Of a stretch of 64,000 bases of DNA, positions 30,594 to 58,841 are shown in pieces (the first letter of the stretch is position 1; each line of letters begins with the position of its first letter). The position numbers and the translations under genes were made by a program. A model generated the notes under the pieces. It had not been told where the DNA came from, searched no databases, and worked only from the letters and a program-made list of their open reading frames with translations. The stretch comes from an uncultured Gammaproteobacteria bacterium (GTDB lineage: Bacteria; Pseudomonadota; Gammaproteobacteria; Eutrophobiales; Eutrophobiaceae). The stretch is taken from NCBI GenBank assembly GCA_951812995.1, contig CATOTD010000003.1, positions 331,288-395,287 on the forward strand, read 5' to 3'.

Positions 30594-30612
30594 TCTATTT
30601 CCATTGCTTTGC

Positions 30613-31999: not shown

Positions 32000-32010
32000 T
32001 ATCGCCACCT

Positions 32011-35888: not shown

Positions 35889-36797
35889 ATGATAAAACGC
35901 ACCATTGAGGTCAGCAGTTCCGCATATCTTCACCTGAGGGACAGACAGATGGTTGTATGCAGAAAAGAAGAGAAGGACGAGAGGGTGCCTGTGGAAGATA
36001 TGGGGATTCTGATCCTTGCCAATCCGTCAATAACCATCTCGCAAAACCTCATAGCCGCCTGTCAGGAAAACAACTGCATCATCGTTTTCTGCGACAAAAG
36101 GCATTTGCCTGTCTCAATCCTGTTGCCGCTTTCTGGGCATTCAATTCACAGCAGGGTGCTCAACATGCAGACCAGCGTTAAAAAGCCGCTGAAAAAAAGG
36201 CTCTGGCAAAAGATAATCATGGCAAAAATAGTAGCACAGGCAACAACGCTTGCATTTTTCAAAAAAGACCCAGCTTCGCTTTCGCAAATGAAAAAACGGG
36301 TTCAAAGCGGCGATGCGGGCAATCTGGAATCGCAAGCGGCAAGAATTTACTGGAAGAGTCTTTTCGGCAAAGAATTTATCAGAGATTATGAGCAAGAAGG
36401 CGAAAACATCTTGCTCAATTACGGATACAGCATTGTCAGAGCGTCAGTCGCAAGAGCACTGTGTGGCACAGGGCTTCATCCCGCACTGGGAATTCATCAT
36501 CACAATCAATACAACCCGCTTTGTCTTGCAGACGACCTGATGGAACCGCTACGTCCACTTGTTGACAGGCGGGTTTATGAGATGAAACAAGCGGGCAGAG
36601 TCGCCCTTAGCAAAGAAACAAAGCAATCGCTGCTGTCTGTCTTGTCTGAGGATGTGCTTTTTAATGATAAAAAACTGCCGATGAATGTTGCGGTGCAACT
36701 TTATGCGGCCAGCCTTAAAAAGGCATTTTCCGATGGCGTTGATGCTTTGAAAATTCCAACGCTGACTGATATAAGACAACTGCAAATTGAAATTTAG
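35889..36797 (+). CDS. cas1: Cas1 integrase
   Basis: 302 aa with a type II Cas1-like sequence (..NLESQAARIYW.., ..LNYGYSIVRASVARAL.., ..GIHHHNQYNPLCLADDLMEPLRPLVD). Confidence 0.9.
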   Translation: MIKRTIEVSSSAYLHLRDRQMVVCRKEEKDERVPVEDMGILILANPSITISQNLIAACQENNCIIVFCDKRHLPVSILLPLSGHSIHSRVLNMQTSVKKPLKKRLWQKIIMAKIVAQATTLAFFKKDPASLSQMKKRVQSGDAGNLESQAARIYWKSLFGKEFIRDYEQEGENILLNYGYSIVRASVARALCGTGLHPALGIHHHNQYNPLCLADDLMEPLRPLVDRRVYEMKQAGRVALSKETKQSLLSVLSEDVLFNDKKLPMNVAVQLYAASLKKAFSDGVDALKIPTLTDIRQLQIEI

Positions 36798-36801
36798 GAC
36801 A

Positions 36802-37131
36802 ATGGTTTTCGGAGGGTACAGAACTTTGTGGATAGTCGTGATGTTTGACTTGCCAACCGATACCAAGCGGGCCAGGCGGGCTTATACCAATTTTAGAAAA
36901 CTACTCATTCAAGACGGGTTTATCATGATGCAGTTTTCGGTTTATGCCAGGCATTGTGCCAGCGATGAAAATGCAACGGTGCATACGGGGCGGATCCAGG
37001 TTGGACTGCCGCCAGATGGGGAGGTTAGAATTATCACAATCACTGATAAACAGTTTGGCAAAATGCAGGTTTTTTATGGGAAAAAACGCAAAATACCAGA
37101 GCGAGCCCCTCAACAGGTTACGCTTTTTTAA
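36802..37131 (+). CDS. cas2: Cas2
   Basis: 109 aa from ATG 36802 (ORF open from 36787). Cas2-like sequence: ..WIVVMFDLPTDTKRARRAYTNFRKLLIQDGFIMMQFSVYARH.. . It follows cas1 directly and precedes the array. Confidence 0.85.
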   Translation: MVFGGYRTLWIVVMFDLPTDTKRARRAYTNFRKLLIQDGFIMMQFSVYARHCASDENATVHTGRIQVGLPPDGEVRIITITDKQFGKMQVFYGKKRKIPERAPQQVTLF

Positions 37132-37181: not shown

Positions 37182-40100
37182 ATTATAACTGACTGAAGCC
37201 TGCCCTCTATTCACAACCGGCGCGGTGGTGCCCAAAGCCGATCTCGAATTATAACTGACTGAAGCCTGCCCTCTATTCACAACGTATCGCCGCAGTCAAC
37301 AAATCGATCTCTTATTATAACTGACTGAAGCCTGCCCTCTATTCACAACTCAGCCCGCCACTGCCCCGATGGATGATGATTATAACTGACTGAAGCCTGC
37401 CCTCTATTCACAACAGTTGCCGAGCGGCTGACGCACAGCCGCGGATTATAACTGACTGAAGCCTGCCCTCTATTCACAACCAGCGGGCAATAAAGCAATT
37501 TGCGAAACAGATTATAACTGACTGAAGCCTGCCCTCTATTCACAACGTTCAACCCCTTACTCACAACCAAGTTAGAATTATAACTGACTGAAGCCTGCCC
37601 TCTATTCACAACCAGAAGTAATCGAGTATGCAATCCTCAAGGATTATAACTGACTGAAGCCTGCCCTCTATTCACAACAATCTGCGTGCGGTGGTCGATG
37701 CGGCCCTGATTATAACTGACTGAAGCCTGCCCTCTATTCACAACCTCTCGAGAGAGAGAGAGAGGGTACAAGCGATTATAACTGACTGAAGCCTGCCCTC
37801 TATTCACAACTATAACATGACCCAACAATGGCAACGAATAATTATAACTGACTGAAGCCTGCCCTCTATTCACAACTATTCCAGCGCATGACCGCCGCGC
37901 TCGATAATTATAACTGACTGAAGCCTGCCCTCTATTCACAACACCATTACACATAGGTAGATAGCTAGTTTAATTATAACTGACTGAAGCCTGCCCTCTA
38001 TTCACAACAATAACAACTCTGCCACCTTTAACTTGAGATTATAACTGACTGAAGCCTGCCCTCTATTCACAACTCCTCCGAGATACTACTTTTAGCAAAA
38101 TAAATTATAACTGACTGAAGCCTGCCCTCTATTCACAACAGAAACAGTCAAAGGACCTTTAATTGTAAAATTATAACTGACTGAAGCCTGCCCTCTATTC
38201 ACAACAAAAAAGGGGAAGGATACAATTAGCTAAAATTATAACTGACTGAAGCCTGCCCTCTATTCACAACGCAATAGTGCCGCTTATGCACGGCTCGATT
38301 ATTATAACTGACTGAAGCCTGCCCTCTATTCACAACGCCAACCAGGACGACCCTCACCCCACGGCGATTATAACTGACTGAAGCCTGCCCTCTATTCACA
38401 ACCTACAAGGGTCTATCTTCTCGAACTGATTTATTATAACTGACTGAAGCCTGCCCTCTATTCACAACCATAACTTGCAATATGCCTTAATAGACCACAT
38501 TATAACTGACTGAAGCCTGCCCTCTATTCACAACCAAAAAGCCAAAAACGAATACACCGAGATAATTATAACTGACTGAAGCCTGCCCTCTATTCACAAC
38601 AGCGATGAACTACATTACAGCTACCATCGAATTATAACTGACTGAAGCCTGCCCTCTATTCACAACCAGAAAGCCAAAAACGAATACACCGAGATAATTA
38701 TAACTGACTGAAGCCTGCCCTCTATTCACAACTGCTGAAAAAGCGATCAGATGGTTCTCCAAATTATAACTGACTGAAGCCTGCCCTCTATTCACAACGC
38801 GATTATGCGATTGGATGTTGGCGTTTTATTATAACTGACTGAAGCCTGCCCTCTATTCACAACAGATGAAGCTCGAATAGGTATCTTATGTTCATTATAA
38901 CTGACTGAAGCCTGCCCTCTATTCACAACTTTCATGGCATAGTTGATAACTGCATCCTGATTATAACTGACTGAAGCCTGCCCTCTATTCACAACGCGCG
39001 AGATACTTGCAAAGACCGGCATCGAATTATAACTGACTGAAGCCTGCCCTCTATTCACAACGATGACAACTCTGCCACCTTTAACTTGAGCATTATAACT
39101 GACTGAAGCCTGCCCTCTATTCACAACACACAGGCTAACCTCGCAATGCCTCTCGCTATTATAACTGACTGAAGCCTGCCCTCTATTCACAACATTTCGG
39201 AGGAGAGGCCTTTGCCATGATTTATTATAACTGACTGAAGCCTGCCCTCTATTCACAACGATTACAACTCTGCCACCTTTAACTTGAGCATTATAACTGA
39301 CTGAAGCCTGCCCTCTATTCACAACCAAAAAGCCGAAAACGAATACACCGAGATAATTATAACTGACTGAAGCCTGCCCTCTATTCACAACGATTTAAGC
39401 AATGATATTGACTTGTTTAATATTATAACTGACTGAAGCCTGCCCTCTATTCACAACATGCACGGGCAACGAGAAAAACAACATCAAATTATAACTGACT
39501 GAAGCCTGCCCTCTATTCACAACAGAAACGGTCAAAGGCCCTTTAATTGTAAAATTATAACTGACTGAAGCCTGCCCTCTATTCACAACAGAAACGGTCA
39601 AAGGCCCTTTAATTGTAAAATTATAACTGACTGAAGCCTGCCCTCTATTCACAACCGCATAGCAGGCACAACGAAACTCGAACTCATTATAACTGACTGA
39701 AGCCTGCCCTCTATTCACAACTGGCAAAAACTTCAAGACAAAGGCAAAGAGATTATAACTGACTGAAGCCTGCCCTCTATTCACAACTGATAGCTAAACT
39801 GGTGATTTGCACCGAGGATTATAACTGACTGAAGCCTGCCCTCTATTCACAACCAGACGTTCAAACTGATGCGCTTGTTGCTGATTATAACTGACTGAAG
39901 CCTGCCCTCTATTCACAACACACCTTTGAAGTCTCCTGATGTTGTCAAGATTATAACTGACTGAAGCCTGCCCTCTATTCACAACCAATATCCAGTAGTG
40001 ACAAGATACAAGCTTATTATAACTGACTGAAGCCTGCCCTCTATTCACAACTAAAAAAGGGTAGACCTGTTCAACCCCTTAATTATAACTGACTGAAGCC

Positions 40101-43100
40101 TGCCCTCTATTCACAACCAAATCCATCTCATAATCACCAGACTCGTAATTATAACTGACTGAAGCCTGCCCTCTATTCACAACCCCGCACCGCCGATTGA
40201 ATAGAGTTGTTGAATTATAACTGACTGAAGCCTGCCCTCTATTCACAACCGGCGCGGTGGTGCCCAAAGCCGATCTTGAATTATAACTGACTGAAGCCTG
40301 CCCTCTATTCACAACAAGTTGAAACAACGCCGCCGCGATCGCTGTATTATAACTGACTGAAGCCTGCCCTCTATTCACAACTGTAACCATAACCGATAGA
40401 ATCGTAAAGCCATTATAACTGACTGAAGCCTGCCCTCTATTCACAACTTTCATCGCATAATTGATAACTGCATCCTGATTATAACTGACTGAAGCCTGCC
40501 CTCTATTCACAACCATCATTGTCATGCAATCATCAGATTCACGATTATAACTGACTGAAGCCTGCCCTCTATTCACAACTAATATCCAATAGTGACAAGA
40601 TACAAGCTTATTATAACTGACTGAAGCCTGCCCTCTATTCACAACTGACAACTTTAACTCTGGGTCCCTGTGGTAATTATAACTGACTGAAGCCTGCCCT
40701 CTATTCACAACAACTTGAGCCCCATGCAACCTGTGAACATGATTATAACTGACTGAAGCCTGCCCTCTATTCACAACAGAAACAGTCAAAGGCCCTTTAA
40801 TTGTAAAATTATAACTGACTGAAGCCTGCCCTCTATTCACAACCCCGATGAGAGGCCTTTGCCATGATTTATTATTATAACTGACTGAAGCCTGCCCTCT
40901 ATTCACAACCCGGAGGAGAGGCCTGTGTCATGATTTATTATTATAACTGACTGAAGCCTGCCCTCTATTCACAACCAATATCCAATAGTGACAAGATACA
41001 AGTTTATTATAACTGACTGAAGCCTGCCCTCTATTCACAACGAAATAGCTATAAGTCCGCAACAATGTATAATTATAACTGACTGAAGCCTGCCCTCTAT
41101 TCACAACCCGGATGAGAGGCCTGTGCCATGATTTATTATTATAACTGACTGAAGCCTGCCCTCTATTCACAACAACATCCGACCCACGATACATCCATAC
41201 GATATTATAACTGACTGAAGCCTGCCCTCTATTCACAACTCTGGAGACATGGAATTATATGTTGACTTTATTATAACTGACTGAAGCCTGCCCTCTATTC
41301 ACAACCCGATTGCCTTCACATCTGCATTCACAGTCATTATAACTGACTGAAGCCTGCCCTCTATTCACAACAGGCAAAGAGTTAACGAACAAAGAAAAAA
41401 TATTATAACTGACTGAAGCCTGCCCTCTATTCACAACTTATCTGAGAAAGAGTAAGAGAAACACCATATTATAACTGACTGAAGCCTGCCCTCTATTCAC
41501 AACCTGTGCCATGATTTACTTGGTTACAGGGGCATTATAACTGACTGAAGCCTGCCCTCTATTCACAACAGCAGGTACCGAGAAAAACAACATCAAAAAT
41601 TATAACTGACTGAAGCCTGCCCTCTATTCACAACTGATTTGTATTTTAGTGCTGAGGAACATACATTATAACTGACTGAAGCCTGCCCTCTATTCACAAC
41701 CAACAATGTATAAAATATTCCTCCGCCGCGATTATAACTGACTGAAGCCTGCCCTCTATTCACAACAGTCGAAGGTCTTGTCGCTAAGAGTGGCAAATTA
41801 TAACTGACTGAAGCCTGCCCTCTATTCACAACACCTCGAATGGGTATCTTATGTTCGGATGAATTATAACTGACTGAAGCCTGCCCTCTATTCACAACGC
41901 TAGCCACGGTTGGTATCTATATATTCACATTATAACTGACTGAAGCCTGCCCTCTATTCACAACCCCTCTCGTACCAATTACTGATATATCTGATTATAA
42001 CTGACTGAAGCCTGCCCTCTATTCACAACTTATAGTTGCTAACCAAATCAGCAATATATATTATAACTGACTGAAGCCTGCCCTCTATTCACAACATGTA
42101 ACCTATGAACATGTGAATTACGTACATTATAACTGACTGAAGCCTGCCCTCTATTCACAACTTCTCTTTGTTCGTTAACTCTTTGCCTTTGATTATAACT
42201 GACTGAAGCCTGCCCTCTATTCACAACCGTTGCCGATGCCCGCCGCGGCGTGCAAATATTATAACTGACTGAAGCCTGCCCTCTATTCACAACTGCGGAA
42301 GTTATTCAGCATCACGCCGCCTCATTATAACTGACTGAAGCCTGCCCTCTATTCACAACGGCCACCAGCTCGTGTATGCCGCCGGCGGCATTATAACTGA
42401 CTGAAGCCTGCCCTCTATTCACAACCAATAAGATCGAGGTCGCCTGCGGCGGTACATTATAACTGACTGAAGCCTGCCCTCTATTCACAACCAACAGTAG
42501 CCAACCATTCCATAGTTACGTATTATAACTGACTGAAGCCTGCCCTCTATTCACAACCAACAGTAGCCAACCATTCCATAGTTACGTATTATAACTGACT
42601 GAAGCCTGCCCTCTATTCACAACCTTCAAAGGTGTCGCACTGTCCATACAATAATTATAACTGACTGAAGCCTGCCCTCTATTCACAACGTAACTTCCAC
42701 TGAGGCTGAGGCTGAAGCATTATAACTGACTGAAGCCTGCCCTCTATTCACAACGTTAATGCTGTCGACCTCCCTACCCTTCCCATTATAACTGACTGAA
42801 GCCTGCCCTCTATTCACAACTAATCTCATTTTTGCCGCTATGATAGCTAAATTATAACTGACTGAAGCCTGCCCTCTATTCACAACGGTCTTACTCTTGG
42901 AAAGTGCGCGGTGATTATTATAACTGACTGAAGCCTGCCCTCTATTCACAACATGAGCGGGCAACGAGAAAAATAACATCAAATTATAACTGACTGAAGC
43001 CTGCCCTCTATTCACAACGTTGAAGGTCTTGTCGCTAAGAGTGGCAAGATTATAACTGACTGAAGCCTGCCCTCTATTCACAACTTTTGCCGTGCGGCCC

Positions 43101-46100
43101 GCGACCTGCGGCCAATTATAACTGACTGAAGCCTGCCCTCTATTCACAACGGCGAGGCTGTCGTTGAAGAAATGCAACGAATTATAACTGACTGAAGCCT
43201 GCCCTCTATTCACAACAATCGGCTTTGCGGGCAATTACACCCGCAAATTATAACTGACTGAAGCCTGCCCTCTATTCACAACAACTAACCAAGAAAGGTC
43301 GGTTATCTGAGAATTATAACTGACTGAAGCCTGCCCTCTATTCACAACTACAAAGTTAAAGTTTTCAGTGCCTTTGAAATTATAACTGACTGAAGCCTGC
43401 CCTCTATTCACAACAATCTGCGTGCGCTGGTCGATGCCGCGCTGATTATAACTGACTGAAGCCTGCCCTCTATTCACAACAGTCCGCGACAGGGATGTCG
43501 CGGAACCTGTATTATAACTGACTGAAGCCTGCCCTCTATTCACAACGCCTTGTGGCATGGCGATACATTGAGTTTCATTATAACTGACTGAAGCCTGCCC
43601 TCTATTCACAACCTGGCAGGATGTCGAGGCGTTGACTAGATAATTATAACTGACTGAAGCCTGCCCTCTATTCACAACCAACAATGCATTGAGTACTCAA
43701 CAGCCGCAATTATAACTGACTGAAGCCTGCCCTCTATTCACAACGCCGATGGCTCCCTTACCGTTCGGAAAACGATTATAACTGACTGAAGCCTGCCCTC
43801 TATTCACAACAGAAACAGTCAAAGGCCCTTTAATTGTAAAATTATAACTGACTGAAGCCTGCCCTCTATTCACAACGTTGGCTACTGTTGGTATCTATAT
43901 ATTTACATTATAACTGACTGAAGCCTGCCCTCTATTCACAACCATCACGCCCATGCAATCATCAGATTCACGATTATAACTGACTGAAGCCTGCCCTCTA
44001 TTCACAACAACGATTGCGATCAAAGCGACAGCAACTGTATTATAACTGACTGAAGCCTGCCCTCTATTCACAACGCCGAGCAAGACCATCTTCGATCGCA
44101 TCGTATTATAACTGACTGAAGCCTGCCCTCTATTCACAACACACAAGCGACTTTAGTGTCGCACCAACACATTATAACTGACTGAAGCCTGCCCTCTATT
44201 CACAACAGGCGACTTGGTTATGTCTGATGCGCATGGATTATAACTGACTGAAGCCTGCCCTCTATTCACAACACTACCCGCGCTAGCCATCGCGGCCAAG
44301 TTATTATAACTGACTGAAGCCTGCCCTCTATTCACAACGCATATTTTAATGATGTCCCCCAGCATAAAATTATAACTGACTGAAGCCTGCCCTCTATTCA
44401 CAACCGATAACATCAACATCATCATCGACAAAGTATTATAACTGACTGAAGCCTGCCCTCTATTCACAACGGTTAAGGTGTTTTCGTTGCTAAGAAGGTC
44501 ATTATAACTGACTGAAGCCTGCCCTCTATTCACAACGTCGCGGTGTGTCTCTTCACACTGATTTTTATTATAACTGACTGAAGCCTGCCCTCTATTCACA
44601 ACTCCATCTTGACCATGATATTGATCAGCGGAATTATAACTGACTGAAGCCTGCCCTCTATTCACAACAGCCGATATGATGTAAAAAGTCATTGTTGATT
44701 ATAACTGACTGAAGCCTGCCCTCTATTCACAACCCTAGTCGATTGGACTTCAACCACAGCTATATTATAACTGACTGAAGCCTGCCCTCTATTCACAACC
44801 GGCCTAGTCGATTGGACTTCAACCACAGCATTATAACTGACTGAAGCCTGCCCTCTATTCACAACAGTAATGGCGGCATCAAGAGCGGCATGAGATTATA
44901 ACTGACTGAAGCCTGCCCTCTATTCACAACTCGTCAGGCGTTGCGGCTACCCTATCCAAAATTATAACTGACTGAAGCCTGCCCTCTATTCACAACTTAA
45001 AACAAGCCGGGGATTTTGATGCCCTGATTATAACTGACTGAAGCCTGCCCTCTATTCACAACTCAACTGGAGACCTCGAACAACGCTGATTCATTATAAC
45101 TGACTGAAGCCTGCCCTCTATTCACAACAACAACGAAGCTCGAACTCTGCGTTGATAAATTATAACTGACTGAAGCCTGCCCTCTATTCACAACACATAT
45201 TTACAAACGGATCGTAGTGTCGTTATTATAACTGACTGAAGCCTGCCCTCTATTCACAACCCTGCCCGCGCCGGATTAGCGCGGCTGGTCATTATAACTG
45301 ACTGAAGCCTGCCCTCTATTCACAACAGTTGCCGAGCGGTTGATACACAGCCGCGGATTATAACTGACTGAAGCCTGCCCTCTATTCACAACTGACTTGG
45401 TTGTGAGTAAGGGGTTAAACAGATTATAACTGACTGAAGCCTGCCCTCTATTCACAACGCCAGACATCGAGGTGTTGATGATTGATTGATTATAACTGAC
45501 TGAAGCCTGCCCTCTATTCACAACCAATTGGGTTTCTAATACGTTCCCAAATTGATTATAACTGACTGAAGCCTGCCCTCTATTCACAACAAGATTTACT
45601 GCCATAAGAAATCTGCACTTATTATAACTGACTGAAGCCTGCCCTCTATTCACAACTACCAAGAGTAAGACCCACGCAGGCTAACCATTATAACTGACTG
45701 AAGCCTGCCCTCTATTCACAACTCGATTGGATCTGCATAGCATCAAGACGACATTATAACTGACTGAAGCCTGCCCTCTATTCACAACAAGACGACCCAG
45801 GGTCCAACAGGATCGCCTATTATAACTGACTGAAGCCTGCCCTCTATTCACAACGGCTTCCGGTAACGAAGAAAGAGCCTTAAAATTATAACTGACTGAA
45901 GCCTGCCCTCTATTCACAACCAGCGGGCAATAAAGCAATTTGCGAAACAGATTATAACTGACTGAAGCCTGCCCTCTATTCACAACGCGCGGCGGCACGG
46001 TGGTATTAAAAATTTAATTATAACTGACTGAAGCCTGCCCTCTATTCACAACTCGGGGTGCGACCGGTGCGCCCAGGCTCGAATTATAACTGACTGAAGC

Positions 46101-49100
46101 CTGCCCTCTATTCACAACACTAAGACATCTGTCGTCTGTTTTTTCAGCATTATAACTGACTGAAGCCTGCCCTCTATTCACAACACTCATAATCACCGCG
46201 CCTTGTGCGATTGCATTATAACTGACTGAAGCCTGCCCTCTATTCACAACAAAGTGTAACAGTGTTAGATGTTATCAGTGATTATAACTGACTGAAGCCT
46301 GCCCTCTATTCACAACGCTGGACGATGAGCCCGCCCCGGCGGCTGATTATAACTGACTGAAGCCTGCCCTCTATTCACAACGCGAAAAATGTCAGGGCAG
46401 ATGATTTTGCGATTATAACTGACTGAAGCCTGCCCTCTATTCACAACTCCGCGCCCGTATCAGCAAATATCGCCGCGATTATAACTGACTGAAGCCTGCC
46501 CTCTATTCACAACAGCACAGCTAGCCACCACCACCGGTGATTAATTATAACTGACTGAAGCCTGCCCTCTATTCACAACGGGCGACAGCTTATACACAAT
46601 AGACTTACGATTATAACTGACTGAAGCCTGCCCTCTATTCACAACAGAATTCCAGGCAACCAAACCCCAGATCGATTATAACTGACTGAAGCCTGCCCTC
46701 TATTCACAACTCATCTGTGATCGTGCTTGCGGTATATCGTATTATAACTGACTGAAGCCTGCCCTCTATTCACAACTCGCCAAACCAGCGCGTTTTGCCG
46801 TGCGGCATTATAACTGACTGAAGCCTGCCCTCTATTCACAACTTTGCGTCACCGGCAGGCAGGCCATTCTTCATTATAACTGACTGAAGCCTGCCCTCTA
46901 TTCACAACCGCGCTGGGGCGGGTCTTGTTGCTGGTCTGATTATAACTGACTGAAGCCTGCCCTCTATTCACAACAACGATTACGATCAAAGCGACAGCAA
47001 CTGTATTATAACTGACTGAAGCCTGCCCTCTATTCACAACCGCCGGACTAGCCGAAGTCAACGACACTGCATTATAACTGACTGAAGCCTGCCCTCTATT
47101 CACAACAGGCGACTTGGTTATGTCTGATGCGCATGGATTATAACTGACTGAAGCCTGCCCTCTATTCACAACCGCTTTCTGATCATCTTGATTTTTTCAC
47201 ATATTATAACTGACTGAAGCCTGCCCTCTATTCACAACTCAAACAGATTTGTATGCGCAGGCTTTAGGATTATAACTGACTGAAGCCTGCCCTCTATTCA
47301 CAACCCCAACAACATAACCGCCTAATCCTAGCTGATTATAACTGACTGAAGCCTGCCCTCTATTCACAACCGATGGCGCGCTGGCTAAAGGGCATCGCTG
47401 ATTATAACTGACTGAAGCCTGCCCTCTATTCACAACGAGCGCGGGCACCGGCATAGCCAGCCCGCATTATAACTGACTGAAGCCTGCCCTCTATTCACAA
47501 CGAGCGCGGGCACCGGCATAGCCAGCCCGCTATTATAACTGACTGAAGCCTGCCCTCTATTCACAACCAATCTTTGCGGAGAGACGACCTCTAAATCATT
47601 ATAACTGACTGAAGCCTGCCCTCTATTCACAACTTTTGCCGTGCGGCCCGCGACCAGCGGCCAATTATAACTGACTGAAGCCTGCCCTCTATTCACAACG
47701 ATCGGCGCGGGATAACGCAAGATCGTACAATTATAACTGACTGAAGCCTGCCCTCTATTCACAACCATCGGCGATGATGAGGCGGAGATTAGCCGATTAT
47801 AACTGACTGAAGCCTGCCCTCTATTCACAACGGACTTTGCGATAAGGCCGAGGCCTGCGAGATTATAACTGACTGAAGCCTGCCCTCTATTCACAACTCA
47901 AACAGATTTGTATGCGCAGGCTTTAGGATTATAACTGACTGAAGCCTGCCCTCTATTCACAACGCCGAGCGGGCCGGGAGATGTTCAAAATGAATTATAA
48001 CTGACTGAAGCCTGCCCTCTATTCACAACCAGCAAATCGACTATCAAATCACCAAAGGCATTATAACTGACTGAAGCCTGCCCTCTATTCACAACAAAAG
48101 TGCACCCGCGCCGGACTTTGCGATAATTATAACTGACTGAAGCCTGCCCTCTATTCACAACTGGCATCGGGGTTAGTTCGCCTGCGGCGAAATTATAACT
48201 GACTGAAGCCTGCCCTCTATTCACAACTTGATCAGATAATCTTTGATGCTGAAGAGTATTATAACTGACTGAAGCCTGCCCTCTATTCACAACGATTGGC
48301 CGCGCGGCCAGTCATCGCTTTGTATTATAACTGACTGAAGCCTGCCCTCTATTCACAACTCAAACAGATTTGTATGCGCAGGCTTTAGGATTATAACTGA
48401 CTGAAGCCTGCCCTCTATTCACAACGCCGAGCGGGCCGGGAGATGTTCAAAATGAATTATAACTGACTGAAGCCTGCCCTCTATTCACAACCAGCAAATC
48501 GACTATCAAATCACCAAAGGCATTATAACTGACTGAAGCCTGCCCTCTATTCACAACAAAAGTGCACCCGCGCCGGACTTTGCGATAATTATAACTGACT
48601 GAAGCCTGCCCTCTATTCACAACTGGCATCGGGGTTAGTTCGCCTGCGGCGAAATTATAACTGACTGAAGCCTGCCCTCTATTCACAACTTGATCAGATA
48701 ATCTTTGATGCTGAAGAGTATTATAACTGACTGAAGCCTGCCCTCTATTCACAACGATTGGCCGCGCGGCCAGTCATCGCTTTGTATTATAACTGACTGA
48801 AGCCTGCCCTCTATTCACAACGACTCACCTGCGGGCGGCGGCCGGGGATATATTATAACTGACTGAAGCCTGCCCTCTATTCACAACGCAATCGAACAGG
48901 CGTTAAAACCAGTGCAAATTATAACTGACTGAAGCCTGCCCTCTATTCACAACCGGCGGTGGTGTCATTAAATGCGGTATCAGATTATAACTGACTGAAG
49001 CCTGCCCTCTATTCACAACCGCCGGACTAGCCGAAGTCAACGACACTGCATTATAACTGACTGAAGCCTGCCCTCTATTCACAACTCGGAGCGACGCATG

Positions 49101-52100
49101 GCCGCATGGCCGAGCATTATAACTGACTGAAGCCTGCCCTCTATTCACAACACTAATATAGTTGATTTGACCAGCGAATTTATTATAACTGACTGAAGCC
49201 TGCCCTCTATTCACAACATTCTGATCGTTGATGAAGCGCAGTTTCTGATTATAACTGACTGAAGCCTGCCCTCTATTCACAACATTCTGATCGTTGATGA
49301 AGCGCAGTTTCTGATTATAACTGACTGAAGCCTGCCCTCTATTCACAACCGGCGCGGCGACCGGCAGAGCCGCGGGCGCATTATAACTGACTGAAGCCTG
49401 CCCTCTATTCACAACCACCCGGGTACTTATAATAGTGCTTTGTTTATTATAACTGACTGAAGCCTGCCCTCTATTCACAACAGATGTGCCCAAATCAAAT
49501 AATGCATCGCGATTATAACTGACTGAAGCCTGCCCTCTATTCACAACGTTCTGATGGTGCGGCTCGCAAGGCCTTTAATTATAACTGACTGAAGCCTGCC
49601 CTCTATTCACAACGACTGCTGAGGCGGAGCTGAATAGCATTCGATTATAACTGACTGAAGCCTGCCCTCTATTCACAACGCCGCACCGATAACAACTGCC
49701 TCTATTACAATTATAACTGACTGAAGCCTGCCCTCTATTCACAACAGATATTGCCGAAGCCATGCTCTATCTATAATTATAACTGACTGAAGCCTGCCCT
49801 CTATTCACAACCATCGGCAACGTCTACTATCAATCTTTCAAATTATAACTGACTGAAGCCTGCCCTCTATTCACAACGTCAAATAAACGCGTTTTTTGTT
49901 TATTTGAATTATAACTGACTGAAGCCTGCCCTCTATTCACAACATAATGAATAACACTTACATCACTAGCGATATTATAACTGACTGAAGCCTGCCCTCT
50001 ATTCACAACCATCAAGGAAGAGGCCAGCAAACGAAACGCATTATAACTGACTGAAGCCTGCCCTCTATTCACAACTATCTGCTAATGCTCGTGCTCGCGA
50101 TCGCGATTATAACTGACTGAAGCCTGCCCTCTATTCACAACTAGGTGCGGAATGTGTTTGATAAATTTGTAATTATAACTGACTGAAGCCTGCCCTCTAT
50201 TCACAACCAAGGTATCGAGGGGGTGTTCCCCTCCCTGATTATAACTGACTGAAGCCTGCCCTCTATTCACAACACTCTCCGCCCAGGCCTCGTTAAAACT
50301 CAAATTATAACTGACTGAAGCCTGCCCTCTATTCACAACTTGCGCATCATCGACCGGCTCGTCGATCATATTATAACTGACTGAAGCCTGCCCTCTATTC
50401 ACAACGATCGCGCCAGTCATAACGCACCGGCGACCATTATAACTGACTGAAGCCTGCCCTCTATTCACAACGGCGGGGATTAGATAAAGATGCTGATGAT
50501 GATTATAACTGACTGAAGCCTGCCCTCTATTCACAACCAGCAAATCGACTATCAAATCACCAAAGGCATTATAACTGACTGAAGCCTGCCCTCTATTCAC
50601 AACCACTGTCAAGCCAGAACCTTCTCTGATATTATTATAACTGACTGAAGCCTGCCCTCTATTCACAACGTTTGCGCATTGCTCGTGGCATTCGCCGCGA
50701 TTATAACTGACTGAAGCCTGCCCTCTATTCACAACTCAACCACGCGCCGTTGCGCCGCGATTTTGATTATAACTGACTGAAGCCTGCCCTCTATTCACAA
50801 CTAGGGGTAGAAGTCACCGATCGACTCCTTGATTATAACTGACTGAAGCCTGCCCTCTATTCACAACTATGGGCACGATGCTCCGCGCCCTGGCTAAATT
50901 ATAACTGACTGAAGCCTGCCCTCTATTCACAACTTTGGATCGCGCGGTTCGACACACCCACCGATTATAACTGACTGAAGCCTGCCCTCTATTCACAACG
51001 CTCAACCGCGCATCGACTGCTGAGGCGGAATTATAACTGACTGAAGCCTGCCCTCTATTCACAACTTATTTGATGAGGTAAAGATAGCTTATCAAATTAT
51101 AACTGACTGAAGCCTGCCCTCTATTCACAACTACGATCTGGCATACCCGCCCGCGCCGGATATTATAACTGACTGAAGCCTGCCCTCTATTCACAACGAG
51201 ACTTGCGATCGGATCGATCGCAACGCGATTATAACTGACTGAAGCCTGCCCTCTATTCACAACTGCCGCCACGGCATGGCGGGATTGTCGCGAATTATAA
51301 CTGACTGAAGCCTGCCCTCTATTCACAACACTAACTCATGTATCCCGCCCGATGCAAAATTATAACTGACTGAAGCCTGCCCTCTATTCACAACGCGCGG
51401 CGGCACGGCGGCATTAAAAATCTAATTATAACTGACTGAAGCCTGCCCTCTATTCACAACCGGCGCGGTGGTGCCCAAAGCCGATCTCGAATTATAACTG
51501 ACTGAAGCCTGCCCTCTATTCACAACTGGCGCAGACTTTGACAGATAGCCTTGTTCATTATAACTGACTGAAGCCTGCCCTCTATTCACAACTCCTTTAC
51601 ACTGATAACATCTAACACTGTTATTATAACTGACTGAAGCCTGCCCTCTATTCACAACTTTTGTTACAGGCGCATCTGCATCGCTAGCATTATAACTGAC
51701 TGAAGCCTGCCCTCTATTCACAACTACCGGATAAATCCAACTGCGGCGACCAGTATTATAACTGACTGAAGCCTGCCCTCTATTCACAACGGAATACTTC
51801 AGCATAAAATCGTTTTATCAATTATAACTGACTGAAGCCTGCCCTCTATTCACAACTTGTTCAAAATGAGCTGAGGTACAAAAAAGATTATAACTGACTG
51901 AAGCCTGCCCTCTATTCACAACAGTTCCCAAGGTAAGACCCACGCAGGCTAATTATAACTGACTGAAGCCTGCCCTCTATTCACAACCGGATGCGGCCGT
52001 TCAGCAACAGCTCTTGAATTATAACTGACTGAAGCCTGCCCTCTATTCACAACTTAAAAAGTTATGCGGGTATTTCCAGGTGAATTATAACTGACTGAAG

Positions 52101-55100
52101 CCTGCCCTCTATTCACAACCAACAAGATCGAGGTTGCCTGCGGCGGTACATTATAACTGACTGAAGCCTGCCCTCTATTCACAACTAATATCCAATAATG
52201 ACACGAAACAAGTTTATTATAACTGACTGAAGCCTGCCCTCTATTCACAACTACTAATCGCTTGGCCAGAAACCTGTGCATATTATAACTGACTGAAGCC
52301 TGCCCTCTATTCACAACCTTCATCGCGTAGTTAATGACTGCATCCTGATTATAACTGACTGAAGCCTGCCCTCTATTCACAACACATACTATTGCTTATT
52401 ATAAGTGTATGTAATTATAACTGACTGAAGCCTGCCCTCTATTCACAACCATCGGCACAGATAGCAAAACCAAACTGATATTATAACTGACTGAAGCCTG
52501 CCCTCTATTCACAACTGTTATCGGTGCGGCGGTGCCGCGCGATTGATTATAACTGACTGAAGCCTGCCCTCTATTCACAACCTACTAATCGCTTGGCCAG
52601 AAGCCTGTGCAATTATAACTGACTGAAGCCTGCCCTCTATTCACAACGCTAGAGGCGTTGCGGCTTTAGCTTGTGTTATTATAACTGACTGAAGCCTGCC
52701 CTCTATTCACAACGCCCTTTTAGAGTTAACCTCATTATTCCCAATTATAACTGACTGAAGCCTGCCCTCTATTCACAACATGAGCAACGTCTACATCACC
52801 AGCGATGATATTATAACTGACTGAAGCCTGCCCTCTATTCACAACACATATTTACAAACGGATCGTAGTGTCGTTATTATAACTGACTGAAGCCTGCCCT
52901 CTATTCACAACCTCGACAGGCTTCGCACCAGGGTTTGATTGATTATAACTGACTGAAGCCTGCCCTCTATTCACAACAGATGATTGTATCAGTTAGTGTA
53001 TCATATTATTATAACTGACTGAAGCCTGCCCTCTATTCACAACAGTTCCAAGAGTGAGACCGACACAAGCTAAATTATAACTGACTGAAGCCTGCCCTCT
53101 ATTCACAACAGCTTTGTGGTGCCTGTCATGCGAAAGCTTATTATAACTGACTGAAGCCTGCCCTCTATTCACAACCATAGGTTGGACTATTGATACAAAT
53201 TTTAATTATAACTGACTGAAGCCTGCCCTCTATTCACAACAGGAAAATCGTGGATACAACGTAATTGGCGATTATAACTGACTGAAGCCTGCCCTCTATT
53301 CACAACAAGAATCTTAAGCTCGACCATACTAAGATAATTATAACTGACTGAAGCCTGCCCTCTATTCACAACAATAGCGGCACAAGTTCCAAGAGTGAGA
53401 CCATTATAACTGACTGAAGCCTGCCCTCTATTCACAACTCAAGCAATCAACAACCTGCGGTTTACTCGATTATAACTGACTGAAGCCTGCCCTCTATTCA
53501 CAACATTGTATCAAAATCACTAAAGCCCGAAGCCATTATAACTGACTGAAGCCTGCCCTCTATTCACAACCTATAGAGGCTTGCTCAACCCAACTATTTA
53601 ATTATAACTGACTGAAGCCTGCCCTCTATTCACAACTTCTCGAGCTCACTCCTTTCGCTGTTCACGATTATAACTGACTGAAGCCTGCCCTCTATTCACA
53701 ACAAGTGCGATCGCCGCCGATGGTTTCATACGATTATAACTGACTGAAGCCTGCCCTCTATTCACAACCCCTGCCTGGACAGGGACAACTCCATAAGAAT
53801 TATAACTGACTGAAGCCTGCCCTCTATTCACAACTCGACTACGCGGCGTTGTGCCGCGATTTTGATTATAACTGACTGAAGCCTGCCCTCTATTCACAAC
53901 CTTTACTGCAATGCTTGAGATGTCGATCGGATTATAACTGACTGAAGTCTGCCCTCTATTCACAACTTTTTGGTAAACCTAACTATATGCCTTTTGATTA
54001 TAACTGACTGAAGCCTGCCCTCTATTCACAACACGTCACAACGCGCCTGCATTTATTAATCGATTATAACTGACTGAAGCCTGCCCTCTATTCACAACTA
54101 GTTACAAAAGCTCCTACTGAAGAAGGAGATTATAACTGACTGAAGCCTGCCCTCTATTCACAACTCCGCGAGGCGTGGCCGTGCAGTTACCTGTATTATA
54201 ACTGACTGAAGCCTGCCCTCTATTCACAACCTATCCAAGTCAGCTACTTCAAACACTTCAATTATAACTGACTGAAGCCTGCCCTCTATTCACAACTTCA
54301 TTGTGCAATGCAAGAACCTGTTGCTTATTATAACTGACTGAAGCCTGCCCTCTATTCACAACCCCCAGATAACCGATCCAGTTTTAAAAGGAATTATAAC
54401 TGACTGAAGCCTGCCCTCTATTCACAACTCGTACTGACTTGACGCCTGAGGATTTACGATTATAACTGACTGAAGCCTGCCCTCTATTCACAACAAGAAC
54501 CTTAAGCTCGACCATACCAAGATAATTATAACTGACTGAAGCCTGCCCTCTATTCACAACTCTTATCGTCAATGAACCCTAAGTTATCGAATTATAACTG
54601 ACTGAAGCCTGCCCTCTATTCACAACAGGCAAAATGGCGAAAGGGTGAGACAATTCATTATAACTGACTGAAGCCTGCCCTCTATTCACAACCTTTACCA
54701 TTGTTAGCGTTATGGTCACATGATTATAACTGACTGAAGCCTGCCCTCTATTCACAACGGCAGTCCACAAAACCCCATTACAGCGATCATTATAACTGAC
54801 TGAAGCCTGCCCTCTATTCACAACCAGCCCGTGCGTTTCAAGCGCGAAAGATTTATTATAACTGACTGAAGCCTGCCCTCTATTCACAACATTTCAATAT
54901 TACGTTGAACTGGTTTCAAAATTATAACTGACTGAAGCCTGCCCTCTATTCACAACGCGCCTGGCCGCCGACCGCGCGGCGACTGAATTATAACTGACTG
55001 AAGCCTGCCCTCTATTCACAACCAGCATGTCGCGGGTCTTGCCCGCCGCTCGATTATAACTGACTGAAGCCTGCCCTCTATTCACAACTGAAGCGAGAGG

Positions 55101-55326
55101 GTGCGTTGTTCAAAATGAATTATAACTGACTGAAGCCTGCCCTCTATTCACAACTTGTAATGGGTATAGTGCTTGTTGTCATGGATTATAACTGACTGAA
55201 GCCTGCCCTCTATTCACAACGTATGCAAAGATACCCCGCGGCCTCTCTCTATTATAACTGACTGAAGCCTGCCCTCTATTCACAACTGCTTGATGACTAC
55301 CCTGTCACCAGTTCGGATTATAACTA
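37182..55326 (-). CRISPR. type II-C CRISPR array: 275 complete 36-nt repeats, 275 spacers, plus a 10-nt terminal partial repeat
   Basis: The plus-strand repeat is ATTATAACTGACTGAAGCCTGCCCTCTATTCACAAC. The crRNA sense is the reverse complement, GTTGTGAATAGAGGGCAGGCTTCAGTCAGTTATAAT. This is the GTTGT...AAT form typical of II-C and is complementary to the minus-strand tracrRNA. The period is 66 nt. 260 spacers are 30 nt and 15 are 29 nt, and the arithmetic 37218+274x66-15=55287 matches the last spacer start. One repeat carries a SNP (C->T at 53948). Confidence 0.97.
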
Positions 55327-55563
55327 GGTGTCTAACGCCCAAAGTAGCGACGCATATTAGCGTGTCTAGCCCGAATGGTAGTGTTACCTTTGTTTGTTAA
55401 GTGCTATTCGATAATAAATTACTCTAAAAATATGGGAATTATATACTTGACTCCAGCTTCACTACAAAATACAAACACAATGATTTGTTAGTTTTTTCAA
55501 GTAACAAGCTCACCATGCTCACCTGTTACCTTATGCAATTTTTCAATTGCACTCCATTTTGGG

Positions 55564-55866
55564 TTAAACCATCTTTTCTTGTCTTTCGTTTGCACGCAAC
55601 GACAATAAAAAGGTTTTTATCGGTTTTTTATCTTTGTTGAATACTGCAATATCAAGCGGATACTCTTTTTTGGTATCAGATGGCCTTACTTTTACACGCC
55701 ACTGTGGTCGTGTTTGTAATTGTTCTTTGGGGTATCCGTAATCTTCGACAAGTGTTTCGGAAAAGACTTGTACTGCTTCTACTTCTTCTGGCGTAGCTTT
55801 TACTTCTTCACCACTTATATAGTCTTTGATGTAACCTTCTCTCATTATCGTCCTGTATATCCGCAT
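55564..55866 (-). CDS. IS passenger ORF (HsdR-N-like), copy B
   Basis: The 100-aa ORF differs from copy A at one residue (MREGY vs MRAGY). Confidence 0.45.
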   Translation of the reverse strand: MRIYRTIMREGYIKDYISGEEVKATPEEVEAVQVFSETLVEDYGYPKEQLQTRPQWRVKVRPSDTKKEYPLDIAVFNKDKKPIKTFLLSLRANERQEKMV

Positions 55867-55885
55867 TCTATTTCCATTGCTTTGC

Positions 55886-56815
55886 TCATGCTAGCACCTC
55901 GCGATAGATAATCCGTTTACCTATCGCGTTGCTTATAAGTGATTCTATACGTTGATTGGTTGGTAACTTACATGGTCCGTTATTCAGTCTAAAAGTCACT
56001 TCGTTCACATAGCGATGTAAGTGTTTAGTGCTGGCATGATGCCATACCCCATACAGACCGCGTTTGAGTAAAGCCCAGACACTTTCAATGCTATTGGTAT
56101 GAATGTTGTTTGAACCCACATATTCTCCCGTACTATGGGTTACCGTACCATGCTGATAAGCAGACTGTAAATGCTGATATGACCTGTGTTCATCTGTGTA
56201 AATGGTGGCACCATATTCCACTGAACAGCCAATCTCTTTGTGCAGGGTCGGTATATCAGTTGATGGGATAGGCTTAGCCCTTGTGCGGCCACCGTGCTCA
56301 CGCATTCCGACCACTACCTGCTTGCCAGCTACGCCACGGCCTGTGCGGACTTTCTTGTGTTTGTGTTTGTTATGTTCCTTCCCACCGATATAGGTCTCAT
56401 CAATCTCAACAATGCCAGAAAGTAAATTATCTGTATTATCGTTACAGGTTTCACGAATGCGAGCCTGCATAAACCAGGCGGTCTTTTGGGTTACTCCGAT
56501 TTGTTTAGATAACTGCAAGCTAGATATGCCCTTGCGCGAGGTGACAGTTAAGTAAATAGCATATAGCCATTTATGTAGTGGAACATGAGAACGTTCAAAG
56601 ATAGTGCCGGTTCTCACCGTAAACTCACTCTTGCAGTCCCGGCATAAGTAATATCCTGTCCGCTTTCCTTTGCGCGGGGTAATACGCTTAAATTCCCCAC
56701 AATGAGGACAGGATATGTAATCTCCCCAGCGTTGTCCCTCAAAATACAATCTAGCGGCTTCAGCATCCGGAAACTGGCGAAATAACTCAAATGTGGATAT
56801 GGTATTGTCTTTCAT
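55886..56815 (-). CDS. IS1595-family transposase, copy B
   Basis: 309 aa, intact, with a handful of substitutions relative to copy A. Confidence 0.9.
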   Translation of the reverse strand: MKDNTISTFELFRQFPDAEAARLYFEGQRWGDYISCPHCGEFKRITPRKGKRTGYYLCRDCKSEFTVRTGTIFERSHVPLHKWLYAIYLTVTSRKGISSLQLSKQIGVTQKTAWFMQARIRETCNDNTDNLLSGIVEIDETYIGGKEHNKHKHKKVRTGRGVAGKQVVVGMREHGGRTRAKPIPSTDIPTLHKEIGCSVEYGATIYTDEHRSYQHLQSAYQHGTVTHSTGEYVGSNNIHTNSIESVWALLKRGLYGVWHHASTKHLHRYVNEVTFRLNNGPCKLPTNQRIESLISNAIGKRIIYREVLA

Positions 56816-56860
56816 TGATGACCCTCCGTTTTATTGCATTTTTATGTTAGATTATATGGG

Positions 56861-57766: not shown

Positions 57767-57890
57767 AATTCTCCTAAAAACCTAACGAGTCATCTGATTG
57801 TTATACGATTTTTTTGGGAATTATATACTTTACTCCAATAGATAACCCATATAATCTAACATAAAAATGCAATAAAAAGGAGGGTTATCA

Positions 57891-58822
57891 ATGAAAGACA
57901 ATACCATATCCACATTTGAGTTATTTCGCCGGTTTCCGGATGCTGAAGCCGCTAGATTGTATTTTGAGGGACAACGCGCTGGGGAGATTACATATCCTGT
58001 CCTCATTGTGGGGAATTTAAGCGTATTACCCCGCGCAAAGGAAAGCGGACAGGATATTACTTATGCCGGGACTGCAAGAGTGAGTTTACAGTGAGAACCG
58101 GCACTATCTTTGAACGTTCTCATGTTCCACTACATAAATGGCTATATGCTATTTACTTAACTGTCACCTCGCGCAAGGGCATATCTAGCTTGCAGTTATC
58201 TAAACAAATCGGCGTAACCCAAAAGACCGCCTGGTTTATGCAGGCCCGCATTCGTGAATCCTGTAACGATAATACAGATAATTTACTTTCTGGCATTGTT
58301 GAGATTGATGAGACCTATATCGGTGGGAAGGAACATAACAAACACAAACACAAGAAAGCCCGCGCAGGCCGTGGCGTAGCTGGCAAGCAGGTAGTGGTCG
58401 GAATGCGTGAGCGCGGTGGCCGCACAAGGGCTAAGCCTATCCCATCAACTGATATACCGACCCTACACAAAGAGATTGGCTGTTCAGTGGAATATGGTGC
58501 CACCATTTACACAGATGAACACAGGTCATATCAGCATTTACAGTCTGCTTATCAGCATGGTACGGTAACCCATAGTGCGGGAGAATATGTGGGTTCAAAC
58601 AACATTCATACCAATAGCATTGAAAGTGTCTGGGCTTTACTCAAACGCGGTCTGTATGGGGTATGGCCTCATGCCAGCACTAAACACTTACATCGCTATG
58701 TGAACGAAGTGACTTTTAGACTGAATAACGGACAATGTAAGTTACCAACCAATCAACGTATAGAATCACTTATAAGCAACGCGATAGGTAAACGGATTAC
58801 CTATCGCGAGGTGCTAGCATGA
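57891..58822 (+). pseudogene. IS1595-family transposase, copy C, frameshifted
   Basis: A GC insertion near 57976 (ACAACGCGCTGGGG vs ACAACGCTGGGG in A and B) splits the gene into 57891-58094 and 58091-58822. Confidence 0.85.
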
Positions 58823-58841
58823 GCAAAGCAATGGAAATAGA

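Follow-up and report, generated by a model that had tools for sequence, protein, structure and literature searches.

[quoted passage not shown] In N. meningitidis a minimal cas9-cas1-cas2 operon lies antisense to an array of 36-nt repeats that start with GTTGT and finish with a -10-like box (TACAAT), the repeat transcribed last receives the new spacers, and the PAM follows the protospacer after 4 nt. The PAM is N4CC for Nme2Cas9 and N4CN for SmuCas9. Arrays in N. meningitidis hold a few tens of spacers (25 in strain 8013), and its Cas9 comprises about 1082 aa. C. jejuni shares the minimal operon and the antisense array, and each of its repeats carries a promoter; its arrays are very short, with a handful of spacers, and its Cas9 has 984 aa (835 residues in the solved construct 5x2g). 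According to a proposal made in a 2025 study, the Cas9 of II-C systems monitors how much crRNA is present and makes acquisition slower in longer arrays; in Neisseria, recombination and natural competence cause arrays to collapse, and acquisition falls with array length. As rising crRNA damps acquisition in this model, arrays are predicted to be self-limiting and one of 275 spacers is unexpected.

Such an array is present in the window, by which we mean the whole 64,000-nt stretch of DNA that was analysed. According to a published survey, II-C arrays located near cas genes had a mean of 17.4 and a median of 12 spacers with a maximum of 184 (n = 2003), and the maxima were 158 for II-A, 71 for II-B and 587 overall (PMC12814883, Suppl. 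Table S4). The window array thus contains about 20 times the usual number and lies above every type II array in that survey. The sequence-only reading had called it exceptionally long for type II, which is supported by these figures. In our own sample of 87 related loci the 42 complete arrays have a median of 18.5 repeats and a maximum of 105, and close relatives by Cas9 carry arrays of 6-53 repeats. A more distant relative, L003 (Gammaproteobacteria MAG OZ242292.1), may rival or exceed the window array, as the retrieved locus stops within the array after at least 132 repeats. L003 also has cas9-cas1-cas2 and a TATAAT at the end of its 36-nt repeat, but its repeat differs and its Cas9 is only 39% identical to ours. 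Hundreds of spacers are also found in very long class 1 arrays such as that of Haliangium ochraceum (587 spacers). These are type I systems with a leader-driven single long precursor, whereas in the window the effector is Cas9 and transcription probably starts in each repeat.

We conclude that the window very probably contains a complete chromosomal II-C locus whose 275 spacers arose mainly through repeated acquisition and not through duplication or assembly error. The host is an uncultivated bacterium, its nearest relatives being gammaproteobacterial MAGs. The features of the locus are listed in Table 1.

Table 1. Features of the CRISPR-Cas locus and its surroundings, in window coordinates.
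Feature	Position	Strand	Description
IS1595-family copy A	30162-31618	-	upstream of tracrRNA gene; own 8-bp target duplication ATATAAAA
tracrRNA gene	31871-32005	-	predicted, 5' end approximate; upstream of cas9
cas9	32102-35851	+	1249 aa; Pfam RuvC_III, HNH_4, Cas9_a
cas1	35889-36797	+	302 aa; Pfam Cas_Cas1 8e-30
cas2	36787-37131	+	114 aa; Pfam CRISPR_Cas2 1e-17; PADLOC Cas2_II 1e-45
Leader-like segment	37132-37181		between cas2 and repeat 1; presumed integration site of new spacers
CRISPR array	37182-55316	-	275 repeat-spacer units; crRNA-sense repeat GTTGTGAATAGAGGGCAGGCTTCAGTCAGTTATAAT
Single-unit tandem duplicates	39488-39619, 42456-42587, 49182-49313		
7-unit tandem duplication	47862-48785		spacers 163-169 = 170-176; two identical 462-bp copies
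Sole variant repeat	53931-53966		no. 255 of 275; single C>T; near presumed old end
Degenerate terminal ('extra', presumed oldest) repeat	55317-55352	-	17/36 positions match consensus
IS1595-family copy B	55434-56891	-	~100 nt past array end; own 8-bp duplication AAAAATAT
IS1595-family third copy	~57817-59273	inverted	duplication ATTTTTT(T/C)

An exact search for the repeat ATTATAACTGACTGAAGCCTGCCCTCTATTCACAAC yielded 274 copies, all within 37182-55286 and none elsewhere in the window, and the one 132-nt gap between exact matches is occupied by the variant copy. The repeat is thus 36 nt long and identical in 274 of 275 cases, with a start-to-start distance of 66 nt (257 cases) or 65 nt (15 cases); 260 spacers measure 30 nt and 15 measure 29 nt. 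Tandem Repeats Finder independently returned a period of 66 starting at 37182, and chance origin is no concern for a 36-mer in 275 copies. The repeat number and the 15 shorter spacers given by the sequence-only reading are borne out by these counts. Of the span it had assigned to the array, 37182-55326, the start is correct, while the end falls inside the remnant of the degenerate terminal repeat. This remnant follows spacer 275 (55287-55316) and has kept the first 9 nt (ATTATAACT), the rest having diverged; in crRNA sense it reads AGTTATAAT, which includes a -10-like box upstream of spacer 275. Such a 'mutated extra repeat' has been described in 60% of II-C arrays (PMC12080349), and the remnant is consistent with that pattern.

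The array begins 50 nt downstream of an intact cas9-cas1-cas2 operon. The Cas9 translation shows the split RuvC with inserted HNH of type II enzymes, according to Pfam, to PADLOC (Cas9 models, 3e-89) and to the catalytic motifs, with RuvC-I (DIGANSIGWA), HNH and RuvC-III (DHRHHAVDA) all found. The protein is larger than the N. meningitidis enzyme and much larger than that of C. jejuni. Its best matches among solved structures are Cas9 chains of ~1080-1095 residues (E ~1e-44, residues ~270-790 only), which we take to be the Neisseria and Geobacillus II-C enzymes, NmeCas9 presumably among them; for the C-terminal ~450 residues there is no close relative among solved structures. No homologue of this Cas9 exceeds 69% identity, and MAG contigs of megabase size carry many of the homologues. 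Cas1 matches the PADLOC models Cas1_II (4e-108) and 'Cas1, subtype II/NMENI' (2e-90), the latter a further likeness to N. meningitidis. Among the flanking genes on either side, a Pfam scan within the window detected neither csn2 nor cas4; it identified transposases, an epimerase, an MMPL transporter, an HSDR_N-like ORF and a YdjM-like protein. Type II-C is defined by cas9, cas1 and cas2 only, without the csn2 of II-A or the cas4 of II-B (PMC3737331). Since neither gene accompanies the operon and a tracrRNA is present, we assign the locus to II-C, an assignment supported by the Cas1 model match and the nearest Cas9 structures. Both the minimal module directly before the array and the subtype had been proposed from the sequence, and both stand. 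A composite transposon carrying the locus was considered in view of the IS1595-family copies and rejected, because each copy has its own 8-bp duplication and no single target-site duplication is shared at the outer ends.

The predicted tracrRNA contains a 40-nt anti-repeat complementary to the CRISPR repeat (31998 down to 31959, ATTATAACTGACTGAAGCCTGTCCAACATTTATTCATAAT), and three hairpins come after it. A terminator-like stem (31898-31881) followed by TTTTTATTTT on the minus strand, with a T-run at 31880-31870, serves as its putative intrinsic terminator. The complementarity was found as a reverse-complement BLAST match between the tracrRNA region and the repeats, and was also read directly from the sequence. 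Upon co-folding with the crRNA-sense repeat all 36 repeat bases were paired at -80.1 kcal/mol, compared with -46.3 ± 2.3 kcal/mol for shuffled repeats. No Rfam family matched the tracrRNA.

[quoted passage not shown] In the window the repeat begins with GTTGT, as in N. meningitidis, and every copy terminates in TATAAT (crRNA sense); in the related loci a TAnAAT ending is present in 22 of the 62, and nearly all repeats end in TAnnnT when inspected by eye. Judged by its sequence and position, the TATAAT at each repeat end is probably a promoter that starts each crRNA. A standard sigma-70 -35/-10 scan called no promoter at the repeats, because they lack a -35 box and, of an extended -10, have just the G. 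The repeat-borne promoters suggested earlier thus remain a reading of the sequence, based on the TATAAT box in every repeat. If each repeat starts its own transcript, expression would not drop with distance over the 18 kb.

The spacers themselves provide evidence of how they were acquired. Partly overlapping spacers allowed us to reconstruct flanks of protospacers, and the PAM given here is deduced from these flanks, not from actual target genomes. In crRNA sense a C was present at position +5 of the 3' flank in 19 of 19 independent cases (chance ~0.25^19 by our own arithmetic), while the 5' flanks gave no signal. This consistent 3' signature corresponds to a PAM of N4C, with the same 4-nt spacing as in N. 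meningitidis. The array comprises 257 distinct spacer sequences, which collapse to 229 distinct protospacer sites. Near-duplicate spacers differ mostly at every third base: 66 of 79 mismatches fall in one codon phase, compared with 47.1 ± 2.6 expected, and none of 5000 randomisations reached the observed value. As only 1 of 9900 repeat bases is altered, and some same-site spacers are shifted by 1-3 nt, we regard the near-duplicates as independent acquisitions. Overlapping and same-site spacers are also closer to each other along the array than at random (medians of 37.5-38 versus 66-82 units, P ~0.01), so that the array resembles a real chronological record of acquisition. Megablast of the whole array, run against 50,697 phage records as well as 72,556 plasmids, gave no match, nor did a scan of five spacer patterns against IMG/VR, and no spacer target was identified in the collections searched. 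Both the PAM and the argument on target diversity therefore draw entirely on evidence internal to the array.

We propose that Cas1-Cas2 together with Cas9 would select protospacers followed by N4C, the roles of the proteins being those of their families and the PAM signature being that observed, and that new units would be inserted at the cas2-adjacent repeat. The minus-strand crRNAs, each probably started, as happens in Neisseria and Campylobacter, at the TATAAT of the repeat before it, would pair with the tracrRNA across the full 36-nt repeat, as they do in silico, and guide Cas9. The spacers would then document a prolonged struggle against a restricted number of mobile elements that kept evolving, in which protospacers were taken again from sequence variants, and a few duplications would have contributed ~10-18 units. 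Exact duplicates account for only ~18 units and comprise the tandem duplications in Table 1 as well as scattered, non-colinear identical spacers (1 and 217, 4 and 124, 5 and 133, 8 and 95). Exact re-acquisition of spacers already held (1 = 217, 5 = 133) weighs against the explanation we favour.

The length of an array, according to a model as quoted in PMC12814883, is set by acquisition over deletion, and an unusually low deletion rate would therefore yield the same array. It is possible, with a modest chance of being right, that the array is real but owes its length to low spacer loss, or is the old archive of an idle system, and not to high or continuing acquisition. Given the part that recombination and competence play in array collapse in Neisseria, a low-recombination host might leave an array unpruned, and the lack of a current target in the collections searched would also suit an idle system. 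However, the cas genes are intact without exception, as is the tracrRNA, and the repeats are nearly uniform; six same-site families with several members lie in the 60 units nearest cas2, which points to repeated sampling in recent times; and, as the duplications demonstrate, recombination takes place inside the array. The very active or long-sustained Cas9-dependent adaptation invoked by the sequence-only reading is supported as regards Cas9 dependence, in view of the C at +5, but 'very active' goes too far, as length alone fits low deletion too. Low loss partly overlaps with the explanation by repeated acquisition.

An assembly artefact, in which the array was inflated by spurious tandem expansion or by joining arrays of different strains, is unlikely, and we give it very little weight. 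The sequence is apparently metagenome-assembled, with the Cas9 cluster on a single 417-kb contig and MAGs as relatives, and the perfect 462-bp tandem duplication, the three single-unit tandem duplicates and the scattered identical spacers could be read in this way. Yet with 257 of 275 spacers distinct, expansion could explain no more than the ~18 duplicate units, and in joined strain arrays one would expect old spacers to recur in long colinear blocks, whereas the scattered duplicates are non-colinear. Related spacers are clustered as in a true time series, and both array ends are flanked by unique sequence. The contig names of relatives resemble the output of long-read assemblers, and since a perfect 462-bp duplication normally breaks short-read assembly, long reads were probably used.

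Repeated acquisition at the cas2 end presumes that unit 1, next to cas2, is the newest and unit 275 the oldest. The opposite polarity, with new spacers received at the cas-distal end, would agree with most CRISPR types, where the leader lies at the start of array transcription (here the distal end), but is improbable, since the degenerate distal repeat would be a poor integration substrate, the sole mutated repeat is no. 255, and several papers report that II-C systems acquire at the last-transcribed repeat, as in N. meningitidis. Moreover, loci of this repeat family have a conserved flank on the cas2 side: the motif adjoining repeat 1, CCCTT(A/G)(T/C)(A/C)CAGCA(A/G)G(G/A)CA(A/G)T(A/T)GAG(G/A)(C/G)CGA, is common to L016 and, compared by eye, also present in L082, a small related array whose one variant repeat likewise sits at the cas-distal end. 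The presumed cas2-end acquisition is inferred indirectly from the literature, the conserved leader motif and the location of all decay at the far end.

A more far-reaching joint reading is offered only tentatively. The array would be the longest of type II so far seen and would work over its whole length through 275 repeat-borne promoters, a II-C design that lifts the limit of transcriptional polarity; it would escape the apoCas9/crRNA feedback of the Neisseria type, and would be an ordered record of escape and reacquisition against a target pool of ~50-60 kb, an effective size that we estimate from 229 distinct sites with 18 overlapping pairs among them. Cleavage by a Cas9 with a one-base N4C PAM may prime the acquisition that drives these cycles.

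The locus takes a well-known system to an extreme and is not a new kind of system; it leaves the understanding of CRISPR unchanged, and its worth is that of an extreme, well-preserved specimen. Its internal redundancy was sufficient to determine the crRNA strand, the N4C PAM and the repeated sampling of targets with no recourse to known phage sequences. The clade of this Cas9, made up of ~1240-aa enzymes, is large and uncharacterised; with its minimal PAM, the enzyme may be of interest for genome editing. As a natural outlier, a II-C array of 275 spacers lends itself to probing the crRNA feedback model of the 2025 study, and it bears on crRNA dilution as a limit to array size and on the role of promoters in each repeat.

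An exact search for the 36-nt repeat ATTATAACTGACTGAAGCCTGCCCTCTATTCACAAC (in crRNA sense GTTGTGAATAGAGGGCAGGCTTCAGTCAGTTATAAT) yielded 274 copies, all within 37182-55286 and none elsewhere in the window. A variant copy with a single C>T change, repeat no. 255 of 275 (53931-53966), lies inside the only double-length gap. The spacing from repeat to repeat is either 66 or 65 nt, the same period being reported by Tandem Repeats Finder, and the whole array comprises 275 spacers over 18.1 kb, 260 of them 30 nt and 15 of them 29 nt long. The sequence-only reading, which had put forward 275 repeats at a 66-nt period with 15 spacers of 29 nt and the rest of 30 nt, was therefore correct in these counts. 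The array itself also stood, but the end given for it, 55326, lands within a degenerate terminal ('extra') repeat. The 9 nt kept in this repeat include a -10-like TATAAT box. That an IS insertion truncated the terminal repeat was rejected, as the IS begins about 100 nt past the array and the repeat is degenerate, not cut. The coordinates of the array's surroundings are collected in the table.

Features of the CRISPR-Cas locus and its surroundings in the window
Feature	Position	Strand	Remarks
Transposase fragments (many)	1166-3935 and 61900-63840		Mutator/IS256 family, DDE_Tnp_1-like gene
Pfa-like polyunsaturated fatty acid / polyketide synthase cluster	5531-21556	-	
KAS III-like gene of Pfa-like cluster	5531-6736	-	
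Hopanoid-type gene set	21777-29118		Squalene/phytoene synthase, squalene-hopene cyclase, PNP_UDP_1 phosphorylase, PhyH dioxygenase, MMPL transporter
IS1595-family copies (three)	30162-31618, 55434-56891, 57817-59273		Two in direct orientation; ~98.5-99% identical
tracrRNA gene	Anti-repeat 31998-31959 (40 nt)	-	Between IS copy A and cas9; followed by hairpins and intrinsic terminator
cas9	32102-35851	+	1249 aa; RuvC_III, HNH and Cas9_a domains; catalytic motifs visible
cas1	35889-36797	+	Best fits type II models, including 'subtype II/NMENI'
cas2	36787-37131	+	Directly upstream of array
Spacer 120 unit	45027-45092		Self-match to IS-associated repeat
Terminal ('extra') repeat, degenerate	55317-55352		After spacer 275; retains only ATTATAACT; 17/36 positions identical overall
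Further IS1595 fragment	63358-63837		

Domain matches and flanking genes agree with the proposed minimal cas9-cas1-cas2 module without csn2 or cas4; neither of the latter was found among the genes flanking the locus in the window, which encode IS1595-family transposases, an epimerase, an MMPL transporter and a YdjM-like protein. The solved structures closest to the Cas9 of the window are Cas9 chains of ~1080-1095 residues, aligned over residues ~270-790 only, which we take to be the Neisseria and Geobacillus II-C enzymes. When the anti-repeat region was co-folded with the minus-strand repeat, all 36 repeat bases were paired at -80.1 kcal/mol, as compared to -46.3 +/- 2.3 kcal/mol for shuffled repeats. 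An Rfam scan of the window gave no match, and thus no curated tracrRNA or other RNA family, and the window holds no tRNAs. Operon and tracrRNA features place the crRNA on the minus strand, antisense to the cas operon, as are the arrays of both N. meningitidis and C. jejuni (PMC3737331). The features of the locus are those by which subtype II-C was defined in the same publication (PMC3737331). The type II-C CRISPR-Cas9 locus is genuine and intact, and its array is record-class.

A 2026 survey covered 82,981 arrays; its 2003 II-C arrays located no more than 10 kb from cas genes held 17.4 spacers on average (median 12, maximum 184), and the longest arrays had 158 spacers in II-A, 71 in II-B and 587 among all arrays (PMC12814883, Suppl. 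Table S4). In Bifidobacterium, the mean for II-C arrays is 25 spacers and the largest has 59, and according to reviews typical bacterial arrays have less than 50. The exceptional length claimed for a type II system was borne out: at 275 spacers the array exceeds every type II array of the 2026 survey; we do not claim it to be unique. Our own sample comprised 87 related loci, 65 with arrays, 42 of those complete. The complete arrays have a median of 18.5 and a maximum of 105 repeats, and the seven closest Cas9 relatives (58-69% identity) are associated with 6, 9, 18, 21, 26, 29 and 53 repeats. A locus with a 39% identical Cas9 from a Gammaproteobacteria MAG (L003, OZ242292.1) carries an array of at least 132 repeats (15027-23735) that reaches the end of the fetched locus, and its repeat likewise ends in TATAAT. 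This example indicates that counts of very long II-C arrays may be too low for long-read MAGs. Two other fetched loci, L086 and L087 (ENA ERZ25069786), contain sister-clade cas9 genes (~1307 aa, 36-37% identical) on ~1.95-Mb contigs; an ankyrin-repeat gene is present near cas9 in L086. Neither has a called cas1 or cas2 beside cas9 or an array seen downstream of it, and L086 holds a 4-repeat match at an unrecorded position. Possibly these are host-associated bacteria whose Cas9 loci are decaying or have been repurposed.

Four internal tests agree that the array is a real acquisition record. The 275 spacers comprise 257 distinct sequences, which fall into 229 different protospacer sites, so that duplication accounts for at most ~18 units (one repeat plus spacer each). 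Exact duplication affects a block of seven units, present twice in tandem (47862-48323 = 48324-48785), and three single units copied in tandem; a few further copies are scattered. Partial overlaps were found in ~20 spacer pairs, in which one spacer gives the flank of the other. In the 3' flanks rebuilt in this way (crRNA sense), position +5 is C in 19/19 independent cases, with weaker preferences for G at +4 (10/19) and a pyrimidine at +6 (15/19), while the 5' flanks showed no signal. Read from the array alone, this pattern points to an N4C PAM located where that of a Cas9 is expected. The one-sided signal independently confirms the crRNA strand and shows that spacer choice is PAM-guided and hence Cas9-assisted. 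Near-duplicate spacers form 41 pairs differing by 1-6 bases, and 66 of their 79 mismatches fall in one codon phase (47.1 +/- 2.6 expected; 0 of 5000 randomisations attain 66). Since only 1 of 9900 repeat bases in the array is mutated, these are not in-array mutations; one site was acquired separately from diverged alleles of protein-coding targets, the differences being mostly synonymous. Several same-site spacers are offset by 1-3 nt. Overlapping or same-site spacers lie a median of 37.5-38 units apart versus 66-82 by chance (P ~0.01), which shows that array order carries time information.

The same data bear on mis-assembly, by which the array would be inflated or chimeric and which we regard as very improbable. 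Spacer uniqueness caps any expansion at ~18 units, the scattered duplicates are not colinear, as they would be in concatenated strain arrays, and the temporal clustering of related spacers counts against scrambling. Moreover, a perfect internal duplication of 462 bp is presumably resolved, as a rule, only by long-read assemblies, and the contig names of relatives resemble long-read assembler output.

Regarding the polarity of this acquisition record, recent papers state that in II-C systems new spacers enter at the last-transcribed repeat and each repeat has a promoter (PMC12814883; PMC12080349), and that the oldest, 'extra' repeat is often mutated (PMC12080349). Both signs of decay in the array are cas-distal: the terminal repeat is degenerate, and no. 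255 is the only repeat with a mutation. The 50-nt flank on the cas2 side contains a motif common to L016 and, read by eye, L082, two fetched loci with the same repeat family, and the variant repeat in the small L082 array is cas-distal as well. Taken together with the published II-C behaviour, we infer from these features that unit 1 (37182), next to cas2, is probably the newest. L082 was the single locus found in a metagenome scan with a degenerate repeat pattern; it has a 4-repeat array, a spacer set unlike that of the window and a 1062-aa Cas9. The window's own Cas9 has no record elsewhere.

Every repeat ends in a perfect TATAAT. In 62 related loci the repeats are all antisense to cas9, 22/62 end in TAnAAT and almost all, by inspection, in TAnnnT. 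A scan with the standard -35/-10 consensus did not call the repeat promoters; judged by its motif, the TATAAT of the repeat probably has promoter activity. The degenerate extra repeat could not pair with the tracrRNA, and its TATAAT would continue to promote transcription of spacer 275 without an extraneous crRNA being formed. By keeping exactly this box the terminal repeat matches the 'mutated extra repeat' strategy (PMC12080349). A promoter-like site, TTCCCA-16-TATTAT (55438-55411, minus strand), partly formed by the end of IS copy B, the IS1595-family copy following the array, points into the array in crRNA sense and is weak, no better than shuffles in the consensus scan.

No match was found for the whole array in INPHARED phages and PLSDB plasmids (megablast), or for five degenerate or core spacer patterns in IMG/VR. 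When the spacers were compared by blastn-short with the remainder of the window and with every fetched locus, only one meaningful match emerged, that of spacer 120, with 26/30 nt at 62110-62135 and 25/26 at 3128-3153. These sites are at the edge of a 212-bp repeat (61926-62137 vs 3126-3337, inverted, 94% identical) adjoining IS256/Mutator transposase fragments. The mismatches are PAM-proximal, which makes self-cleavage unlikely, and spacer 120 appears to be derived from another copy or junction of an IS256/Mutator-associated mobile element. IS debris is plentiful around the locus, and two direct IS1595-family copies bracket it entirely. A composite transposon is ruled out, as each copy has its own 8-bp target duplication and the copies are thus independent insertions; a 100-aa ORF with a weak HSDR_N_2 match is present in each. 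Further proteins of the Pfa-like cluster are a 2196-aa KS-AT-FabA-domain protein, a 2161-aa KS-AT-ACPx3-KR-DH protein and an NMO/FabD-insert enoyl-reductase-like protein.

A back-of-envelope estimate from 18 overlapping pairs among 229 sites, weighted to the most-sampled targets, gives an effective target space of ~55 kb, which implies that a few mobile elements are covered deeply and redundantly. Spacer GC is ~0.40-0.47 in units 1-75 vs ~0.48-0.55 in units 75-225, and six same-site families with multiple members are concentrated in the 60 cas2-proximal units. The GC shift and these families suggest a recent, repeated contest with one AT-richer element.

Array length is acquisition divided by loss (PMC12814883). 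In Neisseria, acquisition is stimulated by apoCas9 as long as crRNA is in short supply and slows down as crRNA levels rise, and array collapse is driven by recombination and natural competence (PMC12477760). The length observed here could reflect sustained pressure from co-evolving elements, which the six cas2-proximal families would fit, feedback that is weak in this clade of Cas9, infrequent deletion, or several of these together; 'very active adaptation' would be one possible reading of the array length. Identical re-acquisitions were noted for spacers 1 and 217 and for spacers 5 and 133, one possibility being that old, diluted crRNAs protect poorly. The locus points to an uncharacterised clade of ~1240-aa Cas9 proteins with a putative N4C PAM, and the array is of value chiefly because it offers a natural system in which to test how II-C array length is controlled and whether crRNA expression is independent of position.
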